NCBI GenBank assembly: GCA_963764225.1
Contig: CAVXRL010000007.1
Coordinates: forward strand, 531,510 to 595,509
DNA from: an uncultured Actinomycetes bacterium
GTDB lineage: Bacteria > Actinomycetota > Thermoleophilia > UBA2241
Direction of reading: 5' to 3'
Length of the DNA stretch: 64,000 nt
Positions within the stretch are counted from its first letter, which is position 1; every line of letters begins with the position of its first letter. Below, piece after piece: positions 451 to 55,146 of the stretch. The notes beneath the pieces were generated by a model. It made no database searches, was not told the origin of the DNA, and saw only the letters and a list, made by a program, of their open reading frames with translations. Position numbers and translations under genes: made by a program.

Positions 451-496
451 GCTCCTCCTGGTAGGGATTGACGAGTCTTGACTGCCCGGCGCGCGA

Positions 497-12612: not shown

Positions 12613-12880
12613 GTCAAAGTCCTGCTCGCTTGCGGCCGGCGGCGCTCTCTCCGTGCTGGAGCGCCGCCGGCCTCGTTCGTGACGGGAGCCGCCGCCCGTT
12701 CTGTTCATGTGAATGCTCGCACATGGACTGATTGGCGTGCAGACGGCCCCTTTGCAGGCCCCGCAGGAGACCAGGCGCCCATTGTGGCCCTAGGGTGTCT
12801 GCCCTACCATCTACTCGTATGAAGTACCGGCGCCGAGGTGGGGGGGAACCTGCTTCCTGAGACCGGCCGAGGGGAGAACG

Positions 12881-13546: not shown

Positions 13547-13720
13547 GTCGTCCCGTCGCGGCGGGGAGGAGTGCTTCGGGCTGCCGGGGAGCCGATCCTG
13601 GATGGAGTGGCGGCGCCTCGTTCGCCCGCATTTGTGACACGATTCACCCAGAGGGATTATTATTGACGCAGTGAACGAAGGCTTGGGAGAGAAGAGAGTG
13701 GCGCTCACCTGGGTGACGGC

Positions 13721-35228: not shown

Positions 35229-35298
35229 GTGTACCTCGTGCGGGCGGCCGGGCTGCCCTGAGTCGGGTCAGCCCGGCCGCCGCTGGTCTTGCGTCAGG

Positions 35299-37233: not shown

Positions 37234-37246
37234 TCCTCCGCTCTCG

Positions 37247-38443: not shown

Positions 38444-38446
38444 CGC

Positions 38447-38947
38447 TCACGCCTCCTTCGACGCGGCCCGGCAGGCGGCCACGATCTCTTTGGCGGTCTC
38501 GGGAGTGACCCGCGTGTGGACTTCGTCGTTGACGAGCAGAGCGGGGCCCTGGTCGCACATGCCGACGCAGCTGGCCCACTCGAGCGTGAACAGGCCGTCG
38601 TCGGTGGTCTGGTCGAAGTCGATGCCGAGCTCGGTCTTGAGCGCGTCGGCGACGGCGTCCTTGCCGGCGAAGTCGCACGAGAGCGTGCCGCACAGGCGCA
38701 CCACGAACTGCCCGGTGGGGGCGCCGTGGAGGAACGCGTAGAACGACGCGACGCTGTAGACCTCCACGGGGTGGATGTCGAGCACGTCGGCGATGGTCTG
38801 CATGGTCTCCGAGTCGATCTCGTGGAACCGCCTCTTGACATCCGCGAGGATCGGGATGAGAGAAGAGCGGCCGGGGCCGAGCTTCTCGACGAGGCTCTCC
38901 ACCTCGGCCCTGAGCTGGTCCTGATTGGTGATGATGGTCGCTGGCAT
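38447..38947 (-). CDS. hydC: Hydrogenase subunit HydC (NuoE-like 2Fe-2S thioredoxin-like)
   Basis: C-x4-C ... C-x3-C (CGTLSCD ... CVGMCDQGP). RBS GAGAGGA lies before the ATG at 38947. A GTG at 38962 is an alternative start. Confidence 0.8.
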   Translation of the reverse strand: MPATIITNQDQLRAEVESLVEKLGPGRSSLIPILADVKRRFHEIDSETMQTIADVLDIHPVEVYSVASFYAFLHGAPTGQFVVRLCGTLSCDFAGKDAVADALKTELGIDFDQTTDDGLFTLEWASCVGMCDQGPALLVNDEVHTRVTPETAKEIVAACRAASKEA

Positions 38948-38958
38948 CTGGAGTCCTC

Positions 38959-39332
38959 TCACTGCTCGAGGAGCTTCTTGACCTTGGCGACCAGCGTCTG
39001 AGGCTCCACCGGCTTGGGCTGGAACTCATCGACCGGCACGATCTCGCCGTCCTTGTCGATGTTGAGGCCCATGGCGGCGTTGACGCTGGTGAGCATGATG
39101 ATCGGCAGCTCATTACCGTTCTTGCGGATCTCGCGCGCCATGCGGAGGCCGTCGTCGGGCTCTTCCATCATGACGTCGAGGATGAGGAGGTCGGGCTTGA
39201 CCTCATCAAGCTTCTTCATGCCGTCGGCGCGATTGGCTGCGCCGATGATCTCGTAGCCCTCGCGCTCGAGGACCAGGCGGCCGGCATCGACGATGTCCGG
39301 GTCGTCGTCAATGATGAGAATCTTTGGCACCA
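38959..39332 (-). CDS. Single-domain response regulator (CheY-like REC), GTG start
   Basis: KILIIDDDPDIVDAG...LILDVMMEEPDDG...KP. Confidence 0.7.
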
Positions 39333-39702
39333 CGCTCTCCTCTGTCCGTTTGCGTTCCCCCGGGGCGGGGTCGGCCCGCCCTCCACAAGCCCGATCCACT
39401 GCCCGGTCCCGCACCCATCCCGGAGAGACCGCTGCGCGGCAGGGACGGGTGGAGGAAGGACGATCGGTCAGGCCACACACTCCACTGGATCAACGGCAAG
39501 AACTTGGCCTCAAATCCGCTCATTTTCTAACACATCAACGGCAGCTTGTGCAAGGGTGCACGAGCGTCTGAAGTTAGTATCGCACATCCTCGAACAGGCA
39601 CAAGCCGTACCTTCTGGCGAGGTGAGGGAGACGATTGTGGACAGCTCGGAGTGCGCGGCGGGGAAGAGGCGACGCCGGGGCGGCCCTTGACGCGGCGAAG
39701 CC

Positions 39703-40933
39703 TCAGAGTTGGGGCGCCGCCGCGGTCGCGGCGTCGGCCGCCGGCTCGGCCGGCCTGGCCGGCCCCTCCGGCCGCGCGTCGTGCAGCGTGACGGTGAAGG
39801 TGCTGCCGACGCCGGGCTCGCTCTTCACCGTCGGCCTCGCCGTCGTACATGTTGGCGATCTTGCGCACCGTGCTGAGGCCGAGGCCGCTGCCGAGGATCT
39901 TGACCGTCTGCTCGTTCTTGATGCGCGTGAACTCGTTGAACAGCTTGCCGGCCTCTTCCGCGCTGAGCCCGATGCCCGTGTCGCTCACGGTGACGACCGC
40001 CGCGTCGCCCTTGCGGCTGAGCGTGACCTTGACGTCGCCGCCGTCGCGGTTGTACTTCACGGCGTTCGAGATGAGGTTGTTCAGGACGATCTCGACCTCG
40101 CCGGGGTCGGCCTTGAGCTCGACGTCCGGTCCGTCCGCGAGCTCCACCGTGATGCCCCGGCGCTCGGCGTCGACGGCGAACAGTTCCATCGACGCGCGCG
40201 CGAGCTCGCGCAGGTCCACGCGCCTGATGACGCGCTCGCGCTGCCCGGACTCGATGCGCGTGAGGTCGAGCAGGTCCATGATGAGCTTCTTCATGCCGTC
40301 CACGCGCACGATGCTGCGCTCCACCATCTGCAGGTTCTGGTCGGCCTCGGTGGTGCGCAGGATGTTGAGGTAGCCCTCGACGGCGTTGAGCGGCGCCTTG
40401 AGCTCGTGCGCGAGCACCGAGATGAAGTTGAAGCGGATCTCGCGCTTCTCCTCGGCGAGCTTGCGCGCCTGCTTGCTCAGGATGAGCTGGCTGGTCGCCT
40501 TGCGCAGCGCGTAGCGCAGCTCCTCGGGCGTGAAGGGCTTGGCGAGGAAGTCGTAGGCGCCGAGCTTGGTGGCCTTGACCGCCGTCTCGAACGTGGCGTA
40601 GGCCGTGATCATGATGGTGAGGACCTCGCGGCCCTGGGCGCTCATGGCGTCGAGCACGTCCATGCCGCCGACGCCCGGCAGCTTGAGGTCGAGCAGCAGC
40701 AGGTCGACCTCGCCGCCCTCGCCGAGCCACGTCAGGTAGTCCTCGCCGCTGGTGAAGTAGCGGAACTCGTAGTCGGCGTCGACGAGCACGTCGGCCACGT
40801 GCACCCTGTACTTCTGGATGATGCGGCGGACGCCGAGGCAGAGCGCCTCCTCGTCGTCGACCATGACGACCTTGAGGGTGACCTGCTGCGGGTCCATGAG
40901 GCTCTCGCGCGCGGTCGGGTCAGGAGAGTTCAT
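39703..40933 (-). CDS. Hybrid response regulator-histidine kinase (REC-HisKA-HATPase); apparent frameshift near 39835 in the HATPase C-terminus
   Basis: REC (VVMVDDEEAL...LLLLDLKLPG), HisKA (FISVLAHELKAPLN), HATPase (NLISNAVKY...DTGIGL...GSGLGLSTVRKIANMYDGE). In-frame junk follows. The +1 frame gives ...VKSEPGVGSTFTVTL... ending at TGA 39703. Confidence 0.65.
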
Positions 40934-40935
40934 GA

Positions 40936-42990
40936 TCAGCTCCCGGTGATCTCCTGCAGGCTGGCCGGGACGTCGGTGGGCGCCTCGTACCGGGGCAGGG
41001 AGATGCTGAAGGTGGTGCCGGTGGGGCCCTTGGCGGGGTCGGCGTTGGACTCCACGCCGATCTGGCCGCGGTGCATCTTGACGATGCCGTGCGTGACGGC
41101 GAGCCCGAGCCCGGTCCCCTTGCCGACCTGTTTGGTCGTGAAGAACGGGCTGAAGAGCTTGTCCAGGTTCTCGGGGGGGATGCCCGTGCCCTCGTCCTGC
41201 ACCGTGATGAGGACGTGCTCGTCGGTACCGTCGAGCTTGACGAGGATCTCGCCTCCGTCCGGCATGGCGTGCTGGGCGTTGGTGAGCAGGTTGGTGAGCA
41301 CCTGGACGATCTGGTCGCCGTCGAGCTCGGCGACGGGGTCCTCGAGGTGGTCGACGACCTGCACGGAGACGCCCTCGGCGACGGGCAGCGTGCGCATGAC
41401 CTCGGCGACGAGGCTGGTGACGTCGGTGGGCTGGCGCACCACCCGGCTCTGGCGGGCGAAGTTGAGCAGGCCGGAGATGATCTTCTTGCAGCGGTTGGCC
41501 TGGTCGACGATGAGCTTGACGTCGTCGGCCTCCTGGGAGTCGACCTCGCAGTCCTCGAGCAGCAGGTTGGCGTGCAGGAGGAGGATGCCGAGCGGGTTGT
41601 TGACCTCGTGGGCGATGCCGGCCGCGAGCTGGCCCATGCTGGCGAGCTTCTCGCTCTTGACCAGGGCCTCCTTGGTGGTCTCCAGCGAGTGGTTGGTCTC
41701 CTGCAGTTCGTCGACCGTCTTGCGCAGCTCCTCGACGGAGTACGGCAGGCACATCTCCACCTCGGCCAGGCCCTGCCAGATGGCCACCGCGTGGTGGCGG
41801 CAGGTGTCGTACCCGCAGGCCCCGCAGTCGAGCTCGTCCTCGGGGCCGTACTTGTTCATGCGCGCGAGGATCTCCTCGACCTCCTCGCCGGACGGCATGT
41901 CGTCGAAGCGCTGGTCGAACGGAGCGAAGGTGCGCGAGAGGTCCACGTCGGCGAACTCGGCGACCGCGGCCTCCCACGCCGCCTGGTCGAAGGCGCTCTG
42001 GCGGCGGCGCGTCTCCTGGCTGACGTCCGAGCGGCGTTTGAAGACGGGGTCCTCGCAGCTGAAGCCGGCGCCCATGATGCAGCCCTCGCAGCAGAGGATG
42101 TCGAGCAGCCGGGCCTCGGTGTCGCCGTGCTCGAAGTCGGTGATGGCCTCCACCAGGTTCTGGCGGCCGTCGGCGCTGACGATCTCGCCGTCCAGCAGGT
42201 CTTCTTCGAGATCGGCGGCCTGGAGCAGGCCGCGCGTGATGGGGAAGAGGGCGCCGAGGCTGCCGTGCGGCGGGTCGAAGTCGTCGTCGCCGCCGTCGCG
42301 CCCCGTGAGGCGGATGCCGTTCGAGGCGAGCAGGGTGCGCAGCTCGACGTAGGTGAGCGCCGCGTGGACCTCTCCCTCGAACTGCTCGTAGCGCGCCTCG
42401 CCCTTCTTGGCGATGCACGGGCCGATGAACACGACCCTGAGGTCCGGCCCGTGCTTCTTGTGCAGCACGCGCGCGATCGCGAGCATCGGCGAGACGATGG
42501 GCGCCAGGTTGTCGAGGATGCCGGGGTTGTACTTGCGCACGTAGCTGACGACGGCGGGGCAACTGGTGGCGATGTGCCGGCCGTCGCTCTCCTCGAGCAG
42601 GCGCGCGTACTCGGCGGCCACGAGGTCGGCGCCGAAGCTCACCTCGTGGACCTGGGCGAAGCCGAGGTCGCGGAGGGCGCCGACCAGCGCCGCCGTGTCG
42701 CACTCCGTGAACTCGGCCGGGTAGCTCGGCGCCACGATGGCCGCGACGGGAGCGTCACCGGCCAGCAGTCCCTCGGTGTCCTCGATGCCGCTGAGCACCT
42801 GCTTGGCGTTCTGGCTGCAGATGGTGACGCAGTTGCCGCAGCCGATGCAGCGCGTCTGGATGACGCTCGCCTGCCCGTCGAGGATCTGGATGGCCTTGGC
42901 CGGGCACTCGCGCACGCAGGTGTAGCAGCGGCGGCACTTCTCCCGGATCGTCGTGACCAGCTGGAGGTAGGGGACCTTGTCTTCGTTCAT
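40936..42990 (-). CDS. Sensory [FeFe]-hydrogenase-like protein fused to a histidine kinase (group C3-like HydS-HK): 2x[4Fe-4S]-H-domain-Cx2Cx4Cx16C-HisKA-HATPase
   Basis: CRRCYTCVRECP and CIGCGNCVTIC; H-domain variants TSCPAVVSY, GPCIAKKGE and CCEGCIMGAG; CGACGYDTCRHHAVAIWQGLAEVEMC; HisKA AHEVNNPL; HATPase LTNLLTNAQHAM...DEGTGI...GTGLGLAVTHGIV. Stop TGA overlaps the start region of the next gene. Confidence 0.85.
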   Translation of the reverse strand: MNEDKVPYLQLVTTIREKCRRCYTCVRECPAKAIQILDGQASVIQTRCIGCGNCVTICSQNAKQVLSGIEDTEGLLAGDAPVAAIVAPSYPAEFTECDTAALVGALRDLGFAQVHEVSFGADLVAAEYARLLEESDGRHIATSCPAVVSYVRKYNPGILDNLAPIVSPMLAIARVLHKKHGPDLRVVFIGPCIAKKGEARYEQFEGEVHAALTYVELRTLLASNGIRLTGRDGGDDDFDPPHGSLGALFPITRGLLQAADLEEDLLDGEIVSADGRQNLVEAITDFEHGDTEARLLDILCCEGCIMGAGFSCEDPVFKRRSDVSQETRRRQSAFDQAAWEAAVAEFADVDLSRTFAPFDQRFDDMPSGEEVEEILARMNKYGPEDELDCGACGYDTCRHHAVAIWQGLAEVEMCLPYSVEELRKTVDELQETNHSLETTKEALVKSEKLASMGQLAAGIAHEVNNPLGILLLHANLLLEDCEVDSQEADDVKLIVDQANRCKKIISGLLNFARQSRVVRQPTDVTSLVAEVMRTLPVAEGVSVQVVDHLEDPVAELDGDQIVQVLTNLLTNAQHAMPDGGEILVKLDGTDEHVLITVQDEGTGIPPENLDKLFSPFFTTKQVGKGTGLGLAVTHGIVKMHRGQIGVESNADPAKGPTGTTFSISLPRYEAPTDVPASLQEITGS

Positions 42991-43008
42991 GGCACTGCCA
43001 CCGTCACG

Positions 43009-43416
43009 TCAGTCCGCGCCGGCGAGCAGCTCGCTCACCTTGGCGAGGAGCGCCGGTGCGTCGATGGGCTTGTCGAAGTAGGCGTCGACGTTCATCTCGG
43101 CGAGGTCCTCGTCCGAGCCGGGGCGGAAGTTGAGGCCGAGCGCGCTGCTCACCGACGTGCTGATGATGATGGGCACGTGGGCGGTGCGCGCGTCGCTCTT
43201 GAGGCGGGCGGCGAAGGAGAATCCGGCGTCGATGCTCGTCATCATGAGGTCGGTGATGACGAGGTCCGGGGCCTCCTCGTCGATGCGCGTCTGCGCCTCG
43301 ACCGGGTTGGTGGCGGTGACGACGCGGTAGCCGGCTCCCTCGAGGATGAAGCGGTTGATCTCGAGGAAGTCGAAGTCGTCGTCGACGATGAGTATCAGTG
43401 CCTGCTGTCCGCTCAT
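43009..43416 (-). CDS. Single-domain response regulator (REC)
   Basis: LILIVDDDFDFLE...LVITDLMM...KP. Confidence 0.75.
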   Translation of the reverse strand: MSGQQALILIVDDDFDFLEINRFILEGAGYRVVTATNPVEAQTRIDEEAPDLVITDLMMTSIDAGFSFAARLKSDARTAHVPIIISTSVSSALGLNFRPGSDEDLAEMNVDAYFDKPIDAPALLAKVSELLAGAD

Positions 43417-43537
43417 GCTCCGCCTTCAGTATAGATGCTGCGTCTTCTTCGGCGGCGGCCCGGGCGGCCCCGGTCTCCCGGGGCCGCCCTGGGGCGCGCC
43501 GCCCACGCGCCCGGCCGCCGTCTTGCTCAGACGCGTC

Positions 43538-45316
43538 TCAGACGCGGTCGTGCTCGAAGTAGTGGGTGTGCAGGAGGTGGTGCGAGATCTCGCCGCACGG
43601 CGCCCCGAGGTACTCCTCGTACAGGGCGCAGACGGCGGGATTCTCGTGCGACTTGCGCAGCTCGCGGCCCTCGTCCTCGCGGTAGATCGCCTCGATGCGC
43701 TTCCTGCGCACCTCGTTGGTGGTGAAGCGCGGCTGCCCGCCGCCGCCGATGCAGCCGCCGGGGCAGGTCATGACCTCGACGAAGTGGTACTCGGCCTCGC
43801 CGCTCTTGATCTGGTCGATGACCTTCTGCGCGTTGCCGAGCCCGTGGGCCACGGCGACCTTCAGGTCGGCGCCCTCGAGGAACGCCCAGTCTCCCTTGGC
43901 TCCCTCGACCTTGACGGTCGCCACCTTCACGCCGTCGAGGCCCTCGATGGGCTGGACGTGCAGGTCGGGGAAGGGGAACGGGGTCTCGGTGACGATCTCC
44001 CAGGCCGTGCGCAGGGCCGCCTCCATGACTCCGCCCGTGTTGGCGAAGATGTCGGCGGCGCCGGTGCTGATGCCGAGCGGCGCGTCCATCTGCTCGTCGG
44101 GCAGGCTGCGGAAGTCGATGCCGGCCTGCTTGATGAAGGCGCCGAGCTCGCGCGTGGTGAGCACGATGTCGACGTCCTGCACGCCGCTGTCGTTCATCTC
44201 GGGACGTGCCGCTTCGTACTTCTTCGCCGTGCACGGCATGACCGAGACCACGACCATGTCCTTCGGGTCCACGCCGATCTTCTCGGCGTAGTAGGTCTTC
44301 GCGATGGCTCCGAACATCTGCTGCGGGCTCTTGCAGGTGCTCAGGTTGTCGAGCATGTCGGGGTTGAAGTGCTCCATGTAGTTGATCCAGCCCGGGGAGC
44401 AGCTGGAGAACTGCGGCAGGGCGACCTGCTCGCCGTCCACGAGGGCCTTCTTGAGCCGCACGAGCAGCTCCGTGCCCTCCTCCATGATCGTGAGGTCGGC
44501 GGTGAAGTCCGTGTCGAACACGGCGTCGAAGCCGAGGCGGCGCAGGGCGGCGACCATCTTGCCGGTCACCAGGGTGCCGGCCGGGTAGTCGAAGCATTCG
44601 CCGAGAGCGGCGCGGATGGCCGGCGCGGTCTGGACGATCACCGTCTTGCCCGGGTCCTCGAGCGCCGCCCAGACGTCGTCGATCTGATTGCGCTCGGTGA
44701 TCGCGCCCACCGGGCAGACGGCGGCGCACTGGCCGCACTGCACGCACACGACGTCGCTCAGGTTCTGGGCGAACGCCGGGCCGATGAGGGTGGCGAAGCC
44801 GCGGCCCTGGGCGAACAGGCCGCCCACCTGCTGGACCTCGTTGCACACCGTGACGCAGCGGCGGCAGGCGACGCACTTGCCGGTGTCGCGGATGAGCGCC
44901 GGGGTGCTGTCGTCCACCATCCTGAGGGTCTTCTCGCCCTCGTACCGGAGGTCGCCGATGCCGAGGTCCTCGGCCAGCGTGCGCAGCTCGCAGTCGCCCG
45001 AGCGGGAGCAGGTGCGGCAGTCGCCGTCGTGCTCGGAGAGCAGCAGTTCGACCACCATCTGGCGCGCGTCGCGCACCTTGCCGGTGTTGGTCTTGACGAC
45101 CATGCCGTCGGTGGCCGGCTGGCTGCACGAGGCGACGAGGGAGCGAGCGCCCTCGACTTCCACGAGGCAGACGCGGCAGGCGCCGATGGACTGGACGTCT
45201 TCGAGGTAGCAGAGGGTCGGCACCTTCACGCCCGCCTGTCTGGCGGCCTGAAGCACCGTGGTGCCCTCGGGGACCTCGACGGTGATCCCATCAATGGTGA
45301 GGGTAGGCATGGTCAT
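43538..45316 (-). CDS. hydA: [FeFe] hydrogenase catalytic subunit HydA (set 2)
   Basis: 592 aa from MTMPTLTIDG. H-cluster motifs SSCSPGW, MPCTAKK and EVMTCPGGCIGGGGQP, plus N-terminal ferredoxin domains. Confidence 0.9.
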   Translation of the reverse strand: MTMPTLTIDGITVEVPEGTTVLQAARQAGVKVPTLCYLEDVQSIGACRVCLVEVEGARSLVASCSQPATDGMVVKTNTGKVRDARQMVVELLLSEHDGDCRTCSRSGDCELRTLAEDLGIGDLRYEGEKTLRMVDDSTPALIRDTGKCVACRRCVTVCNEVQQVGGLFAQGRGFATLIGPAFAQNLSDVVCVQCGQCAAVCPVGAITERNQIDDVWAALEDPGKTVIVQTAPAIRAALGECFDYPAGTLVTGKMVAALRRLGFDAVFDTDFTADLTIMEEGTELLVRLKKALVDGEQVALPQFSSCSPGWINYMEHFNPDMLDNLSTCKSPQQMFGAIAKTYYAEKIGVDPKDMVVVSVMPCTAKKYEAARPEMNDSGVQDVDIVLTTRELGAFIKQAGIDFRSLPDEQMDAPLGISTGAADIFANTGGVMEAALRTAWEIVTETPFPFPDLHVQPIEGLDGVKVATVKVEGAKGDWAFLEGADLKVAVAHGLGNAQKVIDQIKSGEAEYHFVEVMTCPGGCIGGGGQPRFTTNEVRRKRIEAIYREDEGRELRKSHENPAVCALYEEYLGAPCGEISHHLLHTHYFEHDRV

Positions 45317-45327
45317 GCTCTCCTTGC

Positions 45328-48300
45328 TCACGAGCCGTACTTGCCGTAGTCGCAGCGCAGGCAGCGCTTCGCCTCGGCGACCGCGACCTCCGCGGCCCAG
45401 CTCAGCTCGACCTCGTCGAAGTTGGTGACGCGGGCGCCGACGGCCAGTTCCTCGACCGCGTGGCGCTCGACGAACGCGGGGTCGGCGTCGGGGTCGAAGA
45501 ACGTCGGCGGCTCGATGTCGCGCCGCCAGAAGGCGTGGTTGACGCCGGTGAGGAGCTCGTCCATGGCGACGGCGGCCTTCTCGCCGGCGCCGATGGCCTC
45601 GACCACCGACGACGGACCGGTCGCCGCGTCGCCGCCGGTGAACACCCAGTCGACGCTCGTCTGGCCGGTGTCCGGGTCGGCGCCGAGGTAGCCCCAGCGG
45701 TTGAGCTCGACGGGGGTGCCGTCCAGCACGGCCGGCGCGTCGAGCTTCTGCCCGATCGCGGCGATGACGGTGTCGGCCTCGACCACGAAGTCGGGGTTGT
45801 GGCCGGCCACCGGACGGCGACGGCCGCTGCGGTCGTAGTCGCCCAGCGCCATCTCCTTGCAGCGCACGCCGGTGACGTTGCCGCTCGCGTCGCGGAGGAT
45901 CTCCTCCGGCGCGACGAGCGTCATGATGTCGATGCCCTCGAGGTCGGCGGCGTCGATCTCCTCGCCCCACGCCGGCATCTGCGCGCGCGTGCGGCGGTAG
46001 AGGATCCTGACGCTCTCGGCGCCGAGGCGCAGGGCGGTGCGGGCGGCGTCGATGGCCGCGTTGCCGCCGCCGATGACGGCGACGTTCTTGCCCACTTCGC
46101 CCTTGCCGCTGACGTTGTACTCCTTGAGGAAGGAGAGGCCGTCGTACACGCCCGGGCCGTCTTCGCCCGGGACGCCGATGCCGGCGCCCTGCGGGGCGCC
46201 GACGCCGACGAACACGGCCTCGTAGCCCTCGTCCCGGAGGCTCTGCAGCGTGAAGTCCTTCCCGAGCGCCTTGCCGTACTCGAAGCGCGCGCCCATGGAC
46301 TCGATCATCCTGACCTCGCGCTCGAGCTCGGGACGCGGCAGGCGGTAGGCCGGGATGGCCTGGACCAGCATGCCGCCGGCCTTGGGCTCGGCCTCGAACA
46401 CGACCGGCTTGTAGCCCAGCCGCGCGAGGAAGTAGGCGGCGGAGAGGCCGGCCGGCCCGGAGCCGACGACCGCGACCTTGCGCGCGGCGTTCTCGGCGTT
46501 CTCCACGACCTCCGGAAGCTGGATCTCCTCCTCCTGCTCCACCATGAAGCGCTTGACGTGGCGGATGGCGAGGGCGCCGTCGAGGCTGGAGCGCATGCAC
46601 TTGCTCTCGCAGGGGTGGAAGCAGACGCGGGCGCAGACGCTGGCGAGCGGGTTGCGCTCGCGGTGCAGCTTGAGCGCCTCGTCGTAGCGCTGCTCGCCCA
46701 CCAGGCTCACGAAGCCGGGGATGTTGACGCTGGCCGGGCACGCGTTGGAGCAGCGCGCCTTGAACAGCGTCGAGCAGACGCCGGCCTCGCAGTACTTGTC
46801 CTTGATGTGGGCCTCGTACTCGTGGCGGAAGTGGCGGATGGTGCTGAGCACCGGGTTGGGGGCCGTCTGGCCGAGGCCGCAGAGCGCGGTCTGGCTGATG
46901 GACTCGCCGAGGGCGATGAGACGCTCGATGTCGCCCTCCTCGCCCTCACCGTTGCAGATGCGCTCGACGATCTCGAGCATCCGCTTGGTGCCGACGCGGC
47001 AGGGCGGGCACTTGCCGCAGCTCTCTTCCTGCGTGAACTCGAGGAAGAACCGGGCGATGTCCACCATGCAGGTGTCCTCGTCCATGACGATGACGCCGCC
47101 GGAGCCCATGATCGCGCCGAGCTCCTGCAGGGTGGCGTAGTCCACCGGCACGTTGAGGTGCTCCTTGGGGATGCAGCCGCCCGAGGGACCGCCGAGCTGG
47201 GCGGCCTTGTACGCCTTGCCGTTCGGGATGCCGCCGCCGACCTCGTAGATGAGCTCGCCGAGCTGCATGCCGATCGGGACCTCGACGAGGCCGGTGTGCT
47301 GCACGTTGCCGCCGAGCGCGAACACCTTGGTGCCCTTGCTGCTCTCGGTGCCGGTGCTGGCGTACCAGGCCGACGCCCTTGAGGATGATCGGCGCGATGT
47401 TGGCGAAGGTCTCGACGTTGTTGAGCACGCTGGGCTTGCCCCAGAGGCCGCTGACGGCCGGGAACGGCGGGCGCGGCCGCGGCTCGCCGCGGTGACCCTC
47501 GATCGAGGTCATCAGCGCGGTCTCCTCGCCGCAGACGAAGGCGCCGGAGCCCATGCGGATCTCGAGGTCGAAGTCGAAGCCCGAGCCCATGATGTCGTTG
47601 CCGAGCAGGCCGTACTCGCGCGCCTGCCCGAGCGCGTGCTCGAGGCGCTCGACGGCGAGCGGGTACTCGGCGCGCACGTACACGTAGCCCTGGTGCGCGC
47701 CGATCGCGAAGGCGCCGACGACCATGCCCTCGATCAGCGAGTGCGGGTCGCCCTCGAGCACGGAGCGGTCCATGAACGCGCCCGGGTCGCCCTCGTCGGC
47801 GTTGCAGAGGATGTACTTGACGTCGTTGTCCTGCTGCTGGGCGAAGCGCCACTTCATCCCGGTGGGGAACCCGGCGCCGCCGCGGCCGCGCAGGCCCGAG
47901 GCGAGGACTTCTTCGACGACCTGCTCGGGGGTCATCGCGGTGAGCACCTTGGCGAGGGCCTGGTAGCCGTCGCGGGCGATGTACTCGTCGATGTTGAGGG
48001 GGTCGATGATGCCGGAGTTGCGCAGCACGATCTTGACCTGGCGGTTGAAGAACGGGATGTCGTCCATCTCCGCCTGCGTCCGCTCGGTGCCGGGCGCGTG
48101 ACTCACGAGACGCTCGACGACGCGGCCCTTGAGGAGGTGCTCCTCGACGAGCTCGGGCACGTCGTCGACCTTGATGTTCTGGTAGAACACGCCGTCCGGG
48201 TAGACGAGCGCCACGGGGCCCTGCACGCAGGGGCCGAGGCAGCCGGTCTCGACGACGTCGACCTCGCCGGCGAGCTCGCGAGCCTTGAGCTCCTCGCGCA

Positions 48301-48382
48301 CCGCCTTGCTCACGTCGAGGGCGCCGGAGGCGATGCAGCCGCCGCCGGTGCAGATGAGGAAGTGACTTCTCACGTCAGCCAT
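45328..48382 (-). CDS. hydB: HydB (NuoF-like flavoprotein with N-terminal thioredoxin-like domain) fused to a C-terminal GltD-like FAD/NAD(P) oxidoreductase domain; one apparent frameshift near 47327
   Basis: N-part is ORF 46946..48382 (...[13 protein letters not shown]...[10 protein letters not shown]...[10 protein letters not shown]). C-part is ORF 45328..47325 (...[20 protein letters not shown]...[10 protein letters not shown]..., then [22 protein letters not shown]...[15 protein letters not shown]...). Shifting the frame by +1 at the aagggcg/tcggcc junction restores ...[29 protein letters not shown]. Confidence 0.75.
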
Positions 48383-48399
48383 AGCAGATCCACTCGCTC

Positions 48400-48771
48400 T
48401 CAGGTCTTGATGAGGTAGGCCTCGACGGGGGTCCCGCCGACGAGGTGGTTGACGACGATGGTGTGCACTCTGGCCTTGTCGAGCAGGCCGTAGCGGTAGG
48501 TCCTGCCGTCGGACAGGGTCAGGGTCGCCATCGGCTCCTGTTCGCAGAGTCCGGCGCAGCCGGACTGGTGCAGGCTGGCGGAGGTGACGCCGTTGGCCGA
48601 GAGCTCGGTCATGAACGCGGCCACGATCTCGCGCGCGCCGGCGGCGATGCCGCAGGTGCCCATGTGCACGGTCACCTGCGTCTCCTTGCGGCCGGAGCGG
48701 AGGTCGATGTCGGCCTTCGCCTTCTCGGCCAGTGCCTTGAGCTGGTCGGGGCTCGTGATCCGGTCGGTCAT
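48400..48771 (-). CDS. Thioredoxin-like [2Fe-2S] ferredoxin (HydD-like small hydrogenase subunit)
   Basis: 123 aa with CGIAAG...CAGLC. ATG overlaps the hydC2 stop (ATGA). Confidence 0.65.
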   Translation of the reverse strand: MTDRITSPDQLKALAEKAKADIDLRSGRKETQVTVHMGTCGIAAGAREIVAAFMTELSANGVTSASLHQSGCAGLCEQEPMATLTLSDGRTYRYGLLDKARVHTIVVNHLVGGTPVEAYLIKT

Positions 48772-49307
48772 CAGGCGCTCCTCTCTACAAGGGCCGGCTC
48801 CTCGGCGTACTGGGCGAGGATCTCGTTGACGCGCTTGGGCTTGACCCGGTGGTGCACGTCGTCGTCGACCATGATCACCGGGGCGAGGCCGCAGGCGCCG
48901 AAGCAGCGGCCGATCTCCAGGGAGAACTGACGGTCCTCGGTGGTGCCGCCGATGTCGATGCCGAGTTCTTTCTTGAAGGCGTCCATGACGGCGACGCCGC
49001 CGCGCACGTAGCAGGCCGTGCCCAGGCAGATGCGGACGAGGTGCTTGCCGCGCGGGACGGTGGTGAAGAAGGAGTAGAACCCCACCACGCCGGCCACTTC
49101 GCTGTACGGTTTCCGCAGCTCGCGTGCGATGTGCTTGAGCGCGACCTCCGGCAGGTAGCCGAAGATGCCCTGGGCGAGCTGCAGCACGGGGATCAGGGCC
49201 CCGGGCTTGCCCCTGTACTCGGCGATGACCGCGTCGAGGCGCTCGAGGAGTTCCTCCTCGGTCGGCTCCTCGGTGCAGCATGCGCACTGGTTGACTGCTT
49301 CAGCCAT
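48771..49307 (-). CDS. hydC: Hydrogenase subunit HydC (NuoE-like 2Fe-2S), set 2
   Basis: ...CLGTACYVRG...CFGACGLAP. Confidence 0.8.
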   Translation of the reverse strand: MAEAVNQCACCTEEPTEEELLERLDAVIAEYRGKPGALIPVLQLAQGIFGYLPEVALKHIARELRKPYSEVAGVVGFYSFFTTVPRGKHLVRICLGTACYVRGGVAVMDAFKKELGIDIGGTTEDRQFSLEIGRCFGACGLAPVIMVDDDVHHRVKPKRVNEILAQYAEEPALVERSA

Positions 49308-49362
49308 TCCCCTCTCCTTCGCTTGGTTCTGCTGCGATCGCTTCGCAGATGATGTCCATGGC

Positions 49363-49858
49363 TCAGCCAGCGCTCTCTGGAACAGCGGTGAGTTCCGAGA
49401 AGCGTGCCGGTATGTCCGGGCCGCGCAGGGTGGTGCGCGACCCGTCGTCTTTGAGGTCGACCCGGAACTCGATCTCCGGGTTGGTGGCGAACATCGCGGC
49501 GATGGAGGCGGCCACGTCGCCCAGCGGCGGGCGGTCGACGTTGGCGAGCCGCATGTGCGCGGTCGACGCAGACCCCGCCGAGCTCGCCGGACCGCCCCAC
49601 GGTGAGGCCGCCGCCGGCGGCCTCGGCCGCCTGCCGGAAGAGGCTGAGGCCGAGGCCCGTCTTCTTGTCGCTCTTGGTGGTGAAGAACGGGTCGAGGGCC
49701 TGCTCCGGTTCCACCGGCAGGCCCGGCCCGTCGTCCTCGACGCGCATCGTGAGCTCGTCCGCCGCGCGGTCGGCGACGATGGTCGTGGCGATCACCGTCG
49801 CCCCGGCGCGCACCGAGTTCTCGAGGATGTCGAGGAGGTAGAGCGAGAGGTCATGCAT
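49363..49858 (-). CDS. Histidine-kinase-like ATPase (HATPase_c-only) protein typical of hyd operons; apparent frameshift near 49560
   Basis: MHDLSLYLLDILENSVRAGA...VEDDGPGLPV...DKKTGLGLSLFRQAAE...GRSGELGG in frame 1 (ORF 49193..49858). C-terminus ...MRLANVDRPPLGDVAASIAAMFATNPEIEFRVDLKDDG... in the adjacent frame (ORF 49363..49554). Confidence 0.6.
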
Positions 49859-50590
49859 CGCCGATGCGCCTGCCTTCGCGGCCGTGGATGGCGAGCGCCA
49901 GCTCGTCGAAGCCGGGGCGCTCGCACGTGACGGCCGTGCGCGTGGCGCCCACGTCGGTCACGTAGTGGGCGTCGGACGAGTGCAGCACCGGGAGGCCGTG
50001 GACCTTGAACCCGGCCTCCTGCTCCGAGCCGGCCGGCACGTGGCGCGAGAGCTCCACCGCGTCGAACCCGGCCTCGTCCGGGAAGAAGCCCAGCTGGCCG
50101 ATGACCCCGAAGCTGGGGCGGTCGATGTGCGCCGCCACGGCGATGCCGCCGTGCCGGTGCACCAGGGCGACGGCGGCGTCCACGCTCAGCAGCGTGGCGG
50201 TGGCGAGCGCCAGTGTCTCGCGGCCGGTCTCCAGCCCGGCCGCGTCCAGCAGGCGCTGCTCGCCGAAGAACGTCTCGTAGTCCTCGTCGGCCGGGCCCAG
50301 CGTGGCCCCGACCTCCGCGCCGGCCGCCTCGGCGGCCGCGGCGTCGGGGAAGAGCCCCACCACGTGGCACTCCTCCACGGTCGTGATCTCCATGCCGGCG
50401 AGCACGCACAGGTGCTCGCCGGCCGCCTCCTGGACGGCGGCGACGTTGCGCGCGCTGTTGTGGTCGCAGACGGCGATCATCCCCAGCCCCTCAGTGAGCG
50501 CCGATCCCACGATCACCGGCGGGGTCATCGCTTCGTCCGCGCACGGCGAGAGCGCGGTGTGCACGTGCAGGTCTGCGAAGCAGATGTTCA
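49851..50590 (-). CDS. PHP-domain (polymerase/histidinol-phosphatase-like) protein, GTG start
   Basis: ADLHVHTALSPCAD...AVCDHNS...HIDRP...HSSDAH metal-ligand pattern. Confidence 0.7.
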
Positions 50591-50937
50591 CGCATGGGTC
50601 CCCTTGACGCCCAGGGCGTACAGGCGGCCGACGACGTCGAACGTGTCGGCCGGGGAGGAGTAGAGGGCCAGGCCCTCGGCCACCGCCTTGCCGAGCACGT
50701 CGTCCTCGGGCTTGCGGCCGCCGGCGAACACCACGGCGGCGAGCTCGGCGTGGCTGGCCACGGCGATCACGTTGAGGTGGACCTGCAGGGTGACCAGGAG
50801 CCCGCCCTCCGGGGCGTGCGCCAGCACGTCACTCAGCAGGTCGGACGCGTAGCCTCGTTCGATGTCCGCATCTTTGGCGCCGGAGACCTCCGGCGTGAGC
50901 TCCGCGAACCCGAGCTCGCTGGCGATGTCCTCGAGTC

Positions 50938-52504
50938 TCATCTCGCGCTCTCCTCCTCCACACGGGCGGTGTATGGACAGAGCGCGCGCGTGGCGCGCCC
51001 CATGACGACGTCCTCGGCGAGCGCGGCGCACGTGGGCGCGCCGCAGACGCCGCAGTCGCGACCGGGCAGCGCCCGGCTCTCTTCGTCGAGCTGGGCGAGC
51101 TTGCGGATGGCGGTCGCCATGTCCGCGTCCAGGCGGATGCCGGGCCGGGCGCGGAACGGCCGCGTGCGCGTGTGGCTGCCGCCGCCGCCCGGAGCGCCGC
51201 CGCCGCCGGCGGCCCAGCGCCAGGCCGCCACCGACGTGTCCTCGGCGAGCAGCGGGGTGCCGAAGCAGCCGCCGTCGCAGATGTACGGCTCCACGACCGC
51301 GACGCCGGGCAGCCGGCCGTCCTCGACCGCCTCGAGCACCGCGAGCACGTGGGCGACGCCGCTGACCACGAGCAGGTCGTCCGCTCCGACGCGCCTGCTG
51401 TGGGGAGGCGTCGCCGGGCGTGCGGAGCGCGCGCGCCGAGAGCCGCGGCAGCACCGCTTCGCGGACGGCCGCGGCCGTCACCGTGTCGCGCTGCGCCGTG
51501 GGCCGCTGCGAGAGCAGCGCCGTGCGCTGGCTCGGGCAGGACACGGCGAAGGTGGCGCTGCGCCCGTCGAGCTCGAGCTGCGCCGCCTCCCAGGGCGACG
51601 CGAGCGGCGCGAGGTGGTCGAGCAGCGAGGGGAACTTGACCTCCACGAGGCTGACGACCGCCGGGCACACCGGCGAGATCACGGGCGCCGGGCCGTCGCC
51701 GGTGGTGGCGAGGTCGATCAGCTCCCGGCGCAGGTCGTCCTCGTAGCGGTGCACGGAGACGACCTCGTCGTAGCCGAGCCCGAGGAGCTCCTCGACCACC
51801 TCGGGCACGGAGTGGTCGCCGAAGCCGGCGAGGAGCGCCGGTGGGACCACGAGCACGTCCCCGCCGGCGAGCGCGCCGGGCACGTCCTTCATCGTGAGCG
51901 CGCGCGGCGCGCAGGCGGCGATGCACGCGGTGCAGTCGATGCAGAGGTGGTCGAGCACGTGCGGCCGCGCGTCCCGCACGCGGATCGCGGCCGTCGGGCA
52001 GGCGACCAGGCAGTGGCGGCACTCCTTGCAGAGCGCGGCGTCCACGCCGAGCGAGGAGGGCCGCGCGCCCTGGTCCGCGGCCTCCGGCCGCAGCGACACG
52101 GTGAAGCTGACGCGCGTGCCGGCGCCGGGCGCCGAGGTGACCCGGAGCCGGTCGCTGTTGCGCAGGATGTTGGGCAGGCCCATGCCCGCGCCGAACCCGA
52201 GCGCGCGGGCCTCGGCCGAGGCCGTCGACCAGCCCTCGCGCATGGCCGCGTCCACGTCCGTCATGCCCGGGCCCTCGTCCACGACGTCCACGTCCAGCTG
52301 GCCGTCGCTCACGGCCGCCTCCAGGCGGCCGCCGCCCCGGGCGTGGATGACCACGTTCATCTCGGCCTCGTAGGCGGCGATCATGGCGCGCCGCACGGCG
52401 TCGCTCTCGGCGCCGATCCGCTTGAGGTGCTGCTTGAGGTCGCGGGAGGCAGCGCCCGCGCTCGTGAAGTCCCCGCAGCGGATGTCGTAGGCCAGGTGCT
52501 CCAT
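50938..52504 (-). CDS. RsbW-like serine-kinase/HATPase domain fused to ferredoxin and a degenerate [FeFe]-hydrogenase H-domain with C-terminal Cys cluster; apparent frameshift near 51410
   Basis: N-terminus MEHLAYDIRCGDFTSAGAASRDLKQHL...NVVIHARGG (anti-sigma/serine-kinase fold). CKECRHCLVACP and CIDCTACIAAC. H-domain relics SPVCPAVVSLV and VSCPSQRTA. C-part in another frame (ORF 50938..51369): ...VAVVEPYICDGGCFGTP...RDCGVCGAPTCAALAEDVVMGRATRALCPY. Confidence 0.65.
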
Positions 52505-52507
52505 GCG

Positions 52508-53551
52508 TCAGGAGACGCGCTCTCCGTCGAGCGCCGCGTAGATGAGGCCGCAGGTCTCGAAGACGCCCTGCGGCGAGACCATGAGCAGCGTGTCGTTGTC
52601 CTGGGCGAGCTGCACCATCTCGGCGTCCGGTTGGACGCCGTTGACGAAGCAGATGCCCGGCACGTCCATGAGCTCCGCGACGCGCAGCATCTGCACGCTG
52701 GCCAGGTTGCTCACCAGCAGCGTCTTGTCCGACGCCTCGTTGAGCAGGTCGCTGACGCGGTCGCCGGCGTAGACCTTGGCGACACTGGTGCCGCCGGGCT
52801 TGCCCGGAGTCACCAGGTGGGCCCCGATGGTGGCGGCCAGTTCCTCGAGCTTCATGTTCGACCTCGCGAGCAGGGATTCCAGTTCCTTGACGATGGGTCC
52901 GATGTCGCCGCTCCCGTTGGGCTGCGGCTCGGCGCGGCTGCTGAGCCGCGCGAAGTAAGCGGCCGACTCGAGCGCCGCCGTGATGTCCATGTACTCGACG
53001 AAGATCTCGTTGGGCAGGGCGAGCGGCGTGGGGGCGAAGCTGATGATGCTCTTGACCCCCGCGCGCACGAGCACGTCCGCGACCTCCTGGGCCGCCGTGC
53101 CGGGAACGGTGAGCACGGCGATCTGGATGCCGAGGTCGCGCACCAGTCCTTCCATGCGCGCGACGTCGAAGCAGCGCACGCCGTGCACCAGGGTGTCGTC
53201 GAGCGCCGGGTCGCTGTCGAACGCGGCGACGATGGCGACCGACGGGCTCTTCTCGGCGAAGTGCGAGAGCACGGCGTGCCCGAGGTTGCCGGCACCCACC
53301 AGCACGACCTCCTGGCGCACCGAGCCGTCGAGGAAGTGCGTGATGCTCTCGATGCAGGCGGCCACGTCGTAGCCCTTGTTGGGGCTGCCGGAATAGCCGA
53401 TCTCCATGAGGTCGCGGCGCACCTGGGCGGCGCTGACGACGGCGTGACGGGCGAGCTGGTGGGAGTAGATGCTCTCGACGCCGTCGGCCTGGAGGGATTG
53501 CAGCAGCCGCCGGTAGCGGCTCATGCGCGATACGGTCTTCCTCGATACCAC
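52508..53551 (-). CDS. rex: Redox-sensing repressor Rex fused to a C-terminal DRTGG-like domain
   Basis: Rex winged helix (SRYRRLLQSL...) plus Rossmann domain (VLVGAGNLGHAV...). Then about 140 extra residues (...KVYAGDRVSDLL...GICFVNGVQP...) resembling DRTGG-domain proteins found in hyd clusters. Confidence 0.75.
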   Translation of the reverse strand: MVSRKTVSRMSRYRRLLQSLQADGVESIYSHQLARHAVVSAAQVRRDLMEIGYSGSPNKGYDVAACIESITHFLDGSVRQEVVLVGAGNLGHAVLSHFAEKSPSVAIVAAFDSDPALDDTLVHGVRCFDVARMEGLVRDLGIQIAVLTVPGTAAQEVADVLVRAGVKSIISFAPTPLALPNEIFVEYMDITAALESAAYFARLSSRAEPQPNGSGDIGPIVKELESLLARSNMKLEELAATIGAHLVTPGKPGGTSVAKVYAGDRVSDLLNEASDKTLLVSNLASVQMLRVAELMDVPGICFVNGVQPDAEMVQLAQDNDTLLMVSPQGVFETCGLIYAALDGERVS

Positions 53552-53602
53552 AAGGGCTCCCGGGCGGTGGGTGGCCTCACTGGTCCGTTACGGAACGAAC
53601 GC

Positions 53603-53619
53603 TGTGAAATCTGTCACGA
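53603..53619. promoter_or_regulatory. Candidate Rex box TGTGAA-atct-GTCACG, about 55 bp upstream of the rex start (autoregulation?)
   Basis: Resembles the Rex consensus TTGTGAA-N4-TTCACAA, with two mismatches in the right half. Confidence 0.35.
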
Positions 53620-53859
53620 TTCTCTCCCTCACGAGCGCTGGTGTCAACACTCCCGCGCAAAACAGAACACCTCCGCGCACTTGTCCAAGTTGGCCAATCG
53701 GGGCCGCTCTCTCGTGTCGCGCGTACGTTGACCTGTCGCAATCCGGGCGCGGCGCTCTGCTAAAGTGCGGGCACAGCGAGCCATGGGGGAATCTCTCGCT
53801 TCGGCGGGCCGCGGACGGCTCGCCGACCGTGTCTCGGCAGACCGTTCGACTGGAGGTCA

Positions 53860-55146
53860 TTGATGACGGTGACGACGGACAGACCGGCCCACATGCGGCA
53901 CATGCCGCACTTCGTGGCGCCGCTTGCACCCTTCACGGCGGAGAGCGCCCAGGGCAGTTGGGTCACGGACACCGACGGCAACCGGTGGCTCGACTTCGTC
54001 ATGGGCATCGCCGTGATGAACACCGGCTACTCGCACCCCAAGGTGGTCAAGGCGGTGCAGGACCAGGCCGCCAAGGTGTCGCACGCGCAGATGGGCGTGT
54101 GGCGGCACCAGCCCATGCTCGACCTCGCCGCCAAGATGCAGGAGATCCTGCCTGAGGGCATGGACCAGGTCCTGTTCCAGAACTCGGGCGCCGAGGCCGT
54201 GGAGAACGCCGTCAAGCTGGCCAAGCAGGCCACCCGGCGCCCCGGCATCATCGCCTTCCAGGGCGCGTTCCACGGCCGCACGCACCTCACCATGGCGCTC
54301 ACCGACTCGGCCGTGCACTACCGCGGCCACATGGAGCCGCTCATGGGCGGCATCTACCACGCGCGCTACTGCTACCCGTACCGCACCCCGGCGAGTGAGG
54401 ACCCCACCGCCTACGCGCTCGACGACGTGCGCCGCGTGCTCCGCGCCGAGATCGTCGGCGACGACGTGGCCGGCATCATCGTCGAGCCCATCCAGGGCGA
54501 GGGCGGCTTCGTCGTGCCGACCGCGGAGTTCATGCAGGGCCTGCGCGCCATCGCCGACGAGATCGGCGCCAAGCTCATCATCGACGAGATCCAGGCCGGC
54601 ATGGGCCGCACCGGCACGTGGTACTGCCACGAGCACTACGGCGTGAAGCCGGACATCCTGACCAGCGCCAAGGGCCTCGGCTCCGGCTACCCGATCGCCG
54701 CCATCGCGGCCAACGGCGAGCTCTGGGACAAGTGCATGCCGGGCTCCATGGGCGGCACCTACGGCGGCAACGCCGTCGGCTGCGCCGCCGCCGTCGCCAC
54801 CATCGAGGCGATGAAGGAAGAGGGGATGCTCGAGAACGCCGCCCGCCAGGGCGACAAGCTCAAGGCGTACTTCGAGAAGCTGCAGCAGGCGTACCCGGCC
54901 ATCGGCGAGGTGCGCGGCAAGGGCCTCATGATGGCCGTCGAGCTCGTCATGCCGGGCACCAAGGAGCCCAACGCCCCGGCCGCCAAGGCCTTCATCGCCG
55001 AGTGCATCAAGCGGCACATGATCGTCATGGGCGCCGGCGCGTTCGGCAACTGCGTGCGCATGCTGCCGGCCCTCAACGTCACCGACGAGGACCTGGACGC
55101 CGCCATGGCCATCTTCGACGAGGTCGCGCCCATCGCGTTCGCCTGA
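53860..55146 (+). CDS. Class III pyridoxal-phosphate aminotransferase (GabT/ArgD-like)
   Basis: ...IIVEPIQGEGGF...LIIDEIQAGMGRTG...LTSAKGLGSGYP. Confidence 0.85.
   Translation: MMTVTTDRPAHMRHMPHFVAPLAPFTAESAQGSWVTDTDGNRWLDFVMGIAVMNTGYSHPKVVKAVQDQAAKVSHAQMGVWRHQPMLDLAAKMQEILPEGMDQVLFQNSGAEAVENAVKLAKQATRRPGIIAFQGAFHGRTHLTMALTDSAVHYRGHMEPLMGGIYHARYCYPYRTPASEDPTAYALDDVRRVLRAEIVGDDVAGIIVEPIQGEGGFVVPTAEFMQGLRAIADEIGAKLIIDEIQAGMGRTGTWYCHEHYGVKPDILTSAKGLGSGYPIAAIAANGELWDKCMPGSMGGTYGGNAVGCAAAVATIEAMKEEGMLENAARQGDKLKAYFEKLQQAYPAIGEVRGKGLMMAVELVMPGTKEPNAPAAKAFIAECIKRHMIVMGAGAFGNCVRMLPALNVTDEDLDAAMAIFDEVAPIAFA

Follow-up and report, generated by a model that had tools for sequence, protein, structure and literature searches.

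Control of fermentative hydrogenases by the repressor Rex is established. In Caldicellulosiruptor, Rex represses hyd, ech and hydG and autoregulates (PMC6391272); the consensus Rex operator is TTGTGAANNNNTTCACAA (PMC6391272, PMC2883068) and repression is relieved by NADH (PMC6391272; PMC2883068). Here we describe rex-DRTGG, a gene for a Rex repressor fused to a DRTGG-fold domain, which stands at the head of an [FeFe]-hydrogenase operon in a 64,000-nucleotide (nt) stretch of DNA, hereafter the window, from an uncultured Actinomycetes bacterium of the Thermoleophilia (UBA2241; assembly GCA_963764225.1, contig CAVXRL010000007.1, positions 531,510 to 595,509). In our best explanation, which we consider probable rather than secure, a lineage-specific fusion between a complete Rex and the first DRTGG protein of a hydrogenase-linked cassette represses two [FeFe]-hydrogenase operons, its own among them, and is released by NADH.

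Compared with canonical Rex proteins, including those of Thermus aquaticus (T-Rex, 1xcb/3ikt), Bacillus subtilis (2vt2), Streptococcus agalactiae (3keo) and Thermotoga maritima (3wg9) and Streptomyces coelicolor Rex/ROP, Rex-DRTGG is homologous over amino acids (aa) 1-203. It shares with them a predicted palindromic GTG-N10-CAC operator overlapping its own promoter and, with the Caldicellulosiruptor protein (PMC6391272), hydrogenase genes among its (here predicted) targets. Unlike canonical Rex, it carries about 140 additional C-terminal residues (linker and DRTGG domain), its main-clade half-site is CGTGAC instead of TGTGAA, and it is encoded by the first gene of the hydrogenase operon under its predicted control. 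A DRTGG domain has been met before in a bacterial transcription factor, SpxR of Streptococcus pneumoniae (DRTGG, tandem CBS and HotDog domains), where the authors regard DRTGG as a predicted ligand-binding domain (PMC9888711); the DNA-binding and accompanying domains of Rex-DRTGG differ from those of SpxR. The regulatory logic, Rex acting on hyd with autoregulation, is familiar; new are the architecture and its implication for the hydrogenase cassette. No combination of Rex with DRTGG, or with any added sensory or interaction domain, was found in the searchable literature.

The gene, its ribosome-binding site and the parts of its product are all on the minus strand:
52508-53551, minus strand: rex-DRTGG open reading frame (ORF), 347 aa, start GTG, stop TGA at 52508-52510 (from the ORF list)
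53557-53561, minus strand: Shine-Dalgarno sequence GGGAG, 5 nt 5' of the GTG and kept in relatives (read from the sequence)
53408-53548, minus strand: Rex winged-helix DNA-binding domain, aa 2-48 (PF06971, 52.2 bits against a cut-off of 27)
53030-53311, minus strand: Rex NAD(H)-binding Rossmann domain, aa 81-174 (PF02629, 57 bits), with G86-x-G88-x-x-G91 and D112
52943-52987, minus strand: Rex C-terminal helix DITAALESAAYFA, aa ~189-203, aligning with the C-terminal helix of 3keo and 2vt2
52856-52942, minus strand: linker, aa 204-232, with a variable, low-confidence first part and the conserved short helix PIVKELESLLARS at its end
52517-52855, minus strand: DRTGG-fold domain, aa 233-345, starting at a methionine that matches residue 1 of stand-alone homologues

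The G+C fraction at third codon positions of the ORF (0.95) is typical of coding sequence in this window of 70% G+C. We prefer the GTG over the internal ATG at 53524 as start codon, because the N-terminal peptide VSRKTVSRMSRYRRLL is kept in relatives, Met10 (the internal ATG) is replaced by Leu in the more distant relatives L015, L016 and L019, and the GGGAG is separated from the start by non-triplet indels in relatives.

Residues 1-205 comprise a complete Rex, with winged helix, GxGxxG Rossmann domain and C-terminal helix. Three NCBIfam Rex models match above their cut-offs (NF003995, 186.5 against 126; NF003994, 167.1 against 130; NF003996, 151.2 against 138), and residues 2-203 align end to end with every one of the eight distinct PDB Rex sequences (E 3e-36 to 5e-27). 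The recognition helix AAQVRRDL aligns with RRD/RKD of the solved structures. Among 42 fused sequences, G86, G88 and G91 are invariant and D112 of the FD motif is at least 90% conserved; the recognition helix and the C-terminal helix likewise vary little or not at all in this set. On this profile and alignment evidence, the N-terminal two thirds of the 347-aa protein is a Rex family member, and the intact Rex motifs lead us to infer that it responds to NADH. In solved Rex dimers the C-terminal helix is domain-swapped between subunits; the helix DITAALESAAYFA has a predicted local distance difference test (pLDDT) score below 50 in the full-length monomer model, a swap not being visible in a monomer.

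The identity of the C-terminal extension required a less direct route. Pfam PF07085 (DRTGG) covers profile positions 2-102 of 105, yet at 13.3 bits (E 0.075) it stays under the cut-off of 25.2; the NCBIfam DRTGG match is also below threshold, and a precomputed PF07085 match is absent in all 120 best fused relatives. We used a family profile and a fold comparison because the direct matches were sub-threshold. In BLASTP the domain matches the stand-alone DRTGG-like ORF 50588-50941 of the same window (E 3e-13, 28% identity over 109 aa). With aa 226-347 as query, an exhaustive HMMER search retrieved 614 cluster representatives at E <=1e-3, most of them proteins of 112-122 aa whose own Met1 aligns to M233 of the fused protein. 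PF07085 is matched by 29 of the 46 members of the family alignment (best E 6.5e-9), and the family profile matches the DRTGG structure 2ioj over the whole domain (1.2e-5), 3l2b (7.8e-5) and also HprK-N. The AlphaFold2 (AF2) model of the domain has a pLDDT of 91.8, and its five best Foldseek matches in the PDB are 3l2b, 3l31 and 2ioj (template modelling score 0.74-0.76, root-mean-square deviation 2.6-2.8 A, probability 1.0). Judged by profile and modelled fold, the C-terminal extension is a DRTGG-fold domain, as a first-pass annotation of this DNA had proposed in reading Rex and a DRTGG-like domain on one polypeptide.

The domain thus has the fold of AF1212 (2ioj) and of the CBS-DRTGG-CBS insert in the family II pyrophosphatase of Clostridium perfringens (3l2b/3l31), with which it shares only 14-17% sequence identity. 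The name-giving motif reads DRVSD (D264-R265-V-S267-D), retaining D and R but not TGG. Across fused and free family members only S267 and E332 never vary, and the Ser belongs to a DR-x-S-D-L-L motif in which it is invariant throughout the subfamily. Unlike the pyrophosphatase insert, Rex-DRTGG has no flanking CBS domains, and nothing suggests regulation by adenine nucleotides or diadenosine tetraphosphate (Ap4A). As the Pfam model for DRTGG does not pick up this domain, source annotations give the fused proteins as 'Rex' and nothing more.

The fusion is widespread within one lineage. Proteins in the best 120 database clusters (JGI, ENA, NCBI and Logan) measure 336-392 aa and match with at least 96% query coverage and 76-94% identity; the count of at least 120 protein clusters refers to the best matches listed. 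In GTDB contigs, taken with one genome per species, the fusion was found in 26 loci, at protein identities down to 57%. Carriers are uncultured Thermoleophilia, Actinomycetes or Actinomycetota metagenome-assembled genomes (MAGs), with one exception labelled 'Deltaproteobacteria' (87% identity), which is probably mis-binned. One could argue that the 347-aa ORF is an artefact of assembly or frameshifting that joins two genes, as the window and several related long-read MAGs do have frameshifts in neighbouring genes; this is effectively refuted, since the uninterrupted architecture is seen again and again, in more than 120 independently sourced protein clusters and in the 26 species representatives, and since errors break the gene apart (L021, L025, L039, L040, L126) and do not create it. 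On this recurrence we regard the rex-DRTGG fusion as genuine and clade-wide. Candidate unfused close relatives (115-aa proteins 77-85% identical, and proteins of 201-215 aa) were rejected as fused genes broken by frameshifts in long-read MAGs, and no unfused member of the clade was found in the identity range down to 57%.

At one locus (L010:8001-9503) the rex-DRTGG frame runs into the HATPase_c_2 gene with no stop, for more than 500 aa, through a triple fusion or else a fault of assembly; farther along, the same gene is interrupted across three frames.

The linker differs in length among relatives, and the conservation profile shows the short helix directly before M233 to be conserved. In the full-length AF2 model, pLDDT is below 50 for aa 190-228, and the linker is predicted to be flexible. 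These properties bear on the proposal that the fusion is functionally neutral, a stop codon having been lost between adjacent co-transcribed genes whose products work as they did when separate, so that only co-expression is implied. The poorly conserved, predicted flexible linker, the junction exactly at the old Met1 and the L010 frame that even runs on into the next gene all accord with it. We nevertheless find neutrality improbable: the fusion is kept in a clade whose members diverge to 57% identity, with no unfused members found (the apparent 115-aa ones being frameshift artefacts), the helix before M233 is conserved, and tethering to a DNA-bound dimer would alter local concentration and stoichiometry whatever the origin.

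The source of the DRTGG half is indicated by the genes downstream, which form with rex-DRTGG the first hydrogenase operon:
50938-52504, minus strand: gene for a HATPase_c_2 (RsbW/SpoIIAB-type) protein with 2x[4Fe-4S], Fe_hyd_lg_C-like and FeS parts, 3 nt after the rex-DRTGG stop (TGA CGC ATG)
50588-50941, minus strand: DRTGG2, a second, stand-alone DRTGG-like gene of 117 aa, its ATG overlapping the upstream stop (ATGA)
49851-50591, minus strand: gene for a PHP-domain phosphoesterase
49193-49858, minus strand: gene for a HATPase_c protein
43538-49307, minus strand: hydrogenase 1 structural genes (NuoE-like, NuoF-like/GltD-like fusion, and HydA1 of 599 aa)

The cassette order is DRTGG, HATPase_c_2+Fer4+Fe_hyd_lg_C+FeS, DRTGG, PHP, HATPase_c, NuoE-like, NuoF-like and HydA. 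Unfused cassettes L041, L123 and L124 have the gene order of the window, from which they differ in that Rex is attached to the first DRTGG in the latter; the cassettes headed by the closest free homologues (53-63% identical) also have a 2Fe-2S gene between the NuoE-like and NuoF/GltD-like genes. Stand-alone DRTGG-like proteins (~117 aa; L041 from GCA_040961035.1, L123, L124, L038) are encoded at the same place, immediately 5' of the Fe-S/HATPase_c_2 gene, but, unlike Rex-DRTGG, they are free, with no DNA-binding domain and no Rex box upstream, and several lie behind sigma54-type promoters. The stand-alone homologues (112-122 aa) are 50-63% identical to aa 233-345 and colinear with them from Met1 at M233. 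The stop of the stand-alone first gene overlaps the start of the Fe-S/HATPase_c_2 gene by 4 nt, where the window has a gap of 3 nt. Alignment and gene position equate the fused DRTGG domain, beginning at its Met, with the stand-alone DRTGG gene that heads the widespread cassette in front of NADH- and ferredoxin-linked [FeFe]-hydrogenase operons. In all fused loci whose sequence extends far enough downstream, the free DRTGG2 follows the fused gene at ~1.9 kb.

The first-pass annotation had also held that Rex and a DRTGG-domain protein are separate genes in related hyd loci. The DRTGG gene is indeed separate in the six unfused cassettes sampled, but none of the six has a rex gene or Rex box beside it. 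Adjacent but separate rex and DRTGG genes were likewise absent from these six cassettes and from 12 unfused Rex loci (L023-L034); one short contig met in the same search carries a 195-aa gene upstream. Three of the six unfused cassettes have sigma54-type -24/-12 elements (L037:1640-1720, L123:4890-4920, L124:2870-2900) of the form TGGCAT-N5-TTGCT (GG-N10-GC), and in L037 a gene for an NtrC-type activator lies directly upstream of the cassette. The actinobacterial phylum, to our knowledge, lacks sigma54. The transcriptional input of the DRTGG cassette thus appears to differ between phyla. Because no rex gene or Rex box accompanies the six unfused cassettes, three of which show sigma54-type elements, the fusion looks like a rewiring of the cassette in the actinobacterial lineage and not like a merger of genes that are adjacent elsewhere.

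Upstream of rex-DRTGG, we identified a promoter (P_rex) and two operator-like dyads:
53642-53647, minus strand: -35 hexamer TTGACA, kept in 24 loci
53619-53624, minus strand: -10 hexamer GAGAAT after a 17-nt spacer; TAGATT or TAAATT in other subclades
53603-53618 (TGTGAAATCTGTCACG; gene strand CGTGACAGATTTCACA): operator O1, a candidate Rex box that directly abuts the -10 and covers the predicted transcription start
53586-53601 (gene strand CGTTCGTTCCGTAACG): operator O2, another dyad of 16 bp (YGTTnn-N4-nTAACG) that follows O1 after one base, at a centre-to-centre distance of 17 bp

O1, the Rex box that the first-pass annotation had seen in the gene's own leader, is two mismatches from TGTGAA-N4-TTCACA and lies 51 nt from the GTG start codon; across the whole window, 4 sites come within 2 mismatches of this sequence, where shuffles lead one to expect 0.28. 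All 24 loci of fused relatives that we inspected, with proteins down to 57% identical, have the box conserved. When these loci are aligned on a common anchor, conservation is seen in both promoter hexamers and in O1 and O2 but not in the -35/-10 spacer or the leader; the two dyads keep their place relative to the promoter, while the start codon lies anywhere from 52 to 191 nt away. A perfect Rex box, TGTGAATCGATTCACA, occupies the O1 position in L009-L013, and GTG-N10-CAC is kept everywhere.

Conservation of the O2 footprint equals that of O1, and its position weight matrix (PWM) score is 15.3. In the clade of L015, L016, L019, L020 and L025 the first box is itself a hybrid, TGTGAA-N4-GTAACG, an indication that Rex-DRTGG also recognises half-sites of the GTAAC type. 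An RNA hairpin or riboswitch at O2 was rejected (fold z-score -0.83); the consensus structure of the leader RNA amounts to 4 pairs at -0.63 kcal/mol with no compensatory changes, and 53400-53950 has no Rfam match. Since an RNA-structure explanation is unsupported, we take O2 as a putative DNA operator.

The dyads might instead serve another regulator, for example a response regulator, with the Rex half binding elsewhere or having lost DNA binding. Two histidine kinase/response regulator sets do lie in the same supercluster, and both O2 and the box of the second hydrogenase operon described below deviate from the canonical Rex consensus. Against this stand the perfect Rex boxes at O1 in L009-L013 with the universal GTG-N10-CAC, the intact recognition helix of Rex, and the nature of the response regulators beside the hydrogenases, which are receiver-only and have no DNA-binding domain; we judge this explanation highly unlikely.

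Between P_rex and a divergent class-III aminotransferase gene (53860-55146), a direct repeat TTGGCCAAcTTGGACAA (gene strand) is found at ~53681-53700. It is kept in the main clade, with TTGTCCA repeats in L014, and may serve a different regulator or belong to the divergent promoter.

P_rex is the only sigma70-like site in 34000-53900. As the gene junctions are tight and no other promoter-like site occurs in this interval, a box at P_rex could govern the whole first operon, rex through hydA1. A second Rex-like site precedes the other hydrogenase operon:
35299-39480, minus strand: hydrogenase 2 (hyd2) operon, with genes for a response regulator, a NuoE-like protein, a NuoF-like protein and HydA2 (644 aa)
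39547-39562 (gene strand CGTGCACCCTTGCACA): Rex-like operator of the hydrogenase 2 operon, 13 nt after an extended -10 TGTGCGATACT (39576-39581)

For comparison of the hyd2 promoter, 80 metagenome loci were fetched via the response regulator. The sequence CGTGAC-N4-TTGCACA, with CGTTAC variants, occurs at the place of the hyd2 operator in ~32 distinct metagenome sequences, where the N4 spacer is variable, the flanks are conserved and the distance from the -10 is fixed. More distant loci have TGTGAA-N4-TCCGCA at the same place after a comparable -10. The left half-site of the hyd2 operator and its G/T variant are those of O1. We take 39547-39562, with conservation alone as the basis, to be a second operator of the same repressor.

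The first-pass annotation had envisaged NADH/NAD+-responsive control of the whole supercluster. This holds in part: O1 can cover the first operon, and the conserved Rex-like operator precedes the response regulator-NuoE-NuoF-HydA operon, but there is no box before 43416. A scan of the other promoter positions likewise gave no Rex box upstream of 49858, 49307 or 43416/42990 at <=3 mismatches or with two PWMs; 49858 and 49307 are operon-internal positions.

Downstream of the hyd2 operator, at a distance of 12-13 nt, the promoter region (39500-39546) contains a semi-conserved element, GCGTTAGAAA, whose place is taken in L079 (2455-2470) by a full box, CGTTACAACATTCACA. The operators of the two promoters may thus be bipartite.

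The proposed mechanism is as follows. The first operon would be transcribed as rex-DRTGG, HATPase_c_2/Fe-S, DRTGG2, PHP, HATPase_c, NuoE, NuoF/GltD and HydA1. A Rex dimer would bind O1, next to the -10 and over the transcription start, and probably also the weaker adjacent O2 and the related operator just downstream of the hyd2 -10. At low NADH/NAD+ the protein would repress its own operon and the second one; NADH bound to the Rossmann domain would release it from DNA, and the hydrogenases made would reoxidise NADH. The tethered DRTGG domain would be a second interface, most likely docking to the co-translated Fe-S/HATPase_c_2 protein and to free DRTGG2, and it may also pair two Rex dimers on tandem operators.

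What the DRTGG domain does in the repressor is speculative. We favour docking to the Fe-S/HATPase_c_2 protein and/or DRTGG2 over tetramerisation and over a neutral fusion, because the domain has orthologues in the cassette and because of the coupling in translation. If the domain were an oligomerisation module only, two Rex dimers would form a tetramer binding cooperatively to O1 and O2, with neither a cassette partner nor a second signal. Several observations are consistent with this: the tandem conserved dyads 17 bp apart on P_rex, the second box or half-box after the hyd2 operator (a full box in L079), the long flexible linker, which would let the domains reach each other, and the CBS-PPase regulatory fragment, where DRTGG-DRTGG' contacts dimerise the domains (bioRxiv 10.1101/2020.04.07.028951). 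On the other hand, the orthologous stand-alone protein occurs in many lineages with no DNA-binding partner and is coupled to the Fe-S/HATPase_c_2 gene, which argues for a DRTGG function within the cassette; the free paralogue DRTGG2, always present, could also compete. Ordinary Rex of B. subtilis reportedly uses multiple sites with no extra domains. Oligomerisation as the sole role is thus conceivable but, in our view, rather unlikely.

A bolder proposal, made only tentatively and at long odds, is as follows: the cassette may be a partner-switching-type module, with a Fe-S RsbW-like Ser kinase, a PHP phosphatase and DRTGG proteins as partners that are switched or phosphorylated (candidate site the invariant Ser267), and with transcription as its output, here via a Rex that would integrate NADH with the redox state of ferredoxin/H2. 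If so, one repressor would read both reductants that a bifurcating hydrogenase needs simultaneously, NADH via the Rossmann domain and ferredoxin/H2 via the Fe-S kinase acting on DRTGG, and the fusion would be a 'Rosetta stone' for the cassette found beside electron-bifurcating [FeFe]-hydrogenases from Thermotogae to Actinomycetota.

Several points weigh against reading Rex-DRTGG as an NADH-released repressor of both operons. Every carrier is a MAG. The window's O1 departs from the canonical box at its two mismatched positions, and the position of T-Rex Tyr98 is Phe. The site at 39547-39562 has three mismatches, a level at which its occurrence in the window is that of chance (8 found, 5.3 expected), and the O1 type and the hyd2-box type were not linked on the same contigs, the two sites being ~14 kb apart and so beyond the flanks compared. 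The full-length AF2 monomer shows no defined contact between the Rex and DRTGG parts (predicted template modelling score 0.44, linker pLDDT below 50). Finally, we know of no role assigned to the DRTGG cassette in any organism.

That a cassette DRTGG protein is stably fused with a DNA-binding redox sensor speaks directly, at the genomic level, for a place of the cassette in transcriptional control, and the case appears to show the rewiring of a cassette that is sigma54-driven in other phyla. It also offers a concrete test system, with one protein, two defined promoters and one small-molecule effector, within the limits that all carriers are uncultured and that Rex-to-hyd logic with autoregulation is not new.

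A few further features of the window are worth recording. The Fe-S/HATPase_c_2 gene (50938-52504) has a single frameshift near 51375-51389, which is either a sequencing error or a sign of a recent pseudogene; orthologues are intact in L001, L002, L007, L014, L015 and L019. The NuoF-like/GltD-like gene (45328-48382, minus strand) is split into two overlapping ORFs in different frames, with the break near 47325-47400, Complex1_51K in one and SLBB/NADH_4Fe-4S/Fer4_20/Pyr_redox_2 in the other. As a single protein of ~800-1000 aa is encoded in L041 and L039, the split is probably another frameshift. A GC-rich hairpin follows HydA1 at ~43460-43510.

Between the two hydrogenase operons lies a sensory unit (40936-42990, minus strand), a HydS-like protein (Fer4, Fe_hyd_lg_C and FeS) fused to HisKA and HATPase_c, which makes a sensory [FeFe]-hydrogenase linked to a histidine kinase. 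To its two sides lie a response regulator of the receiver-only kind and a hybrid receiver-kinase (43009-43416 and 39527-40936), and the unit has no Rex box in front.

Elsewhere in the window, Rex-like boxes with two mismatches each are found in intergenic DNA at 12708-12723 and 13633-13648, one of them 5' of a gene for a NarL-type response regulator (12881-13546) and one 5' of a gene for a family-2 glycosyltransferase (13721-14596). A further site, 385-400, was set aside as probably a chance match inside a coding region. At the very start of the window (1-860, minus strand) is a fragment matching dimethylamine methyltransferase (Dimeth_PyL, PF09505), a normally pyrrolysine-dependent family that is unexpected in an actinobacterial MAG.

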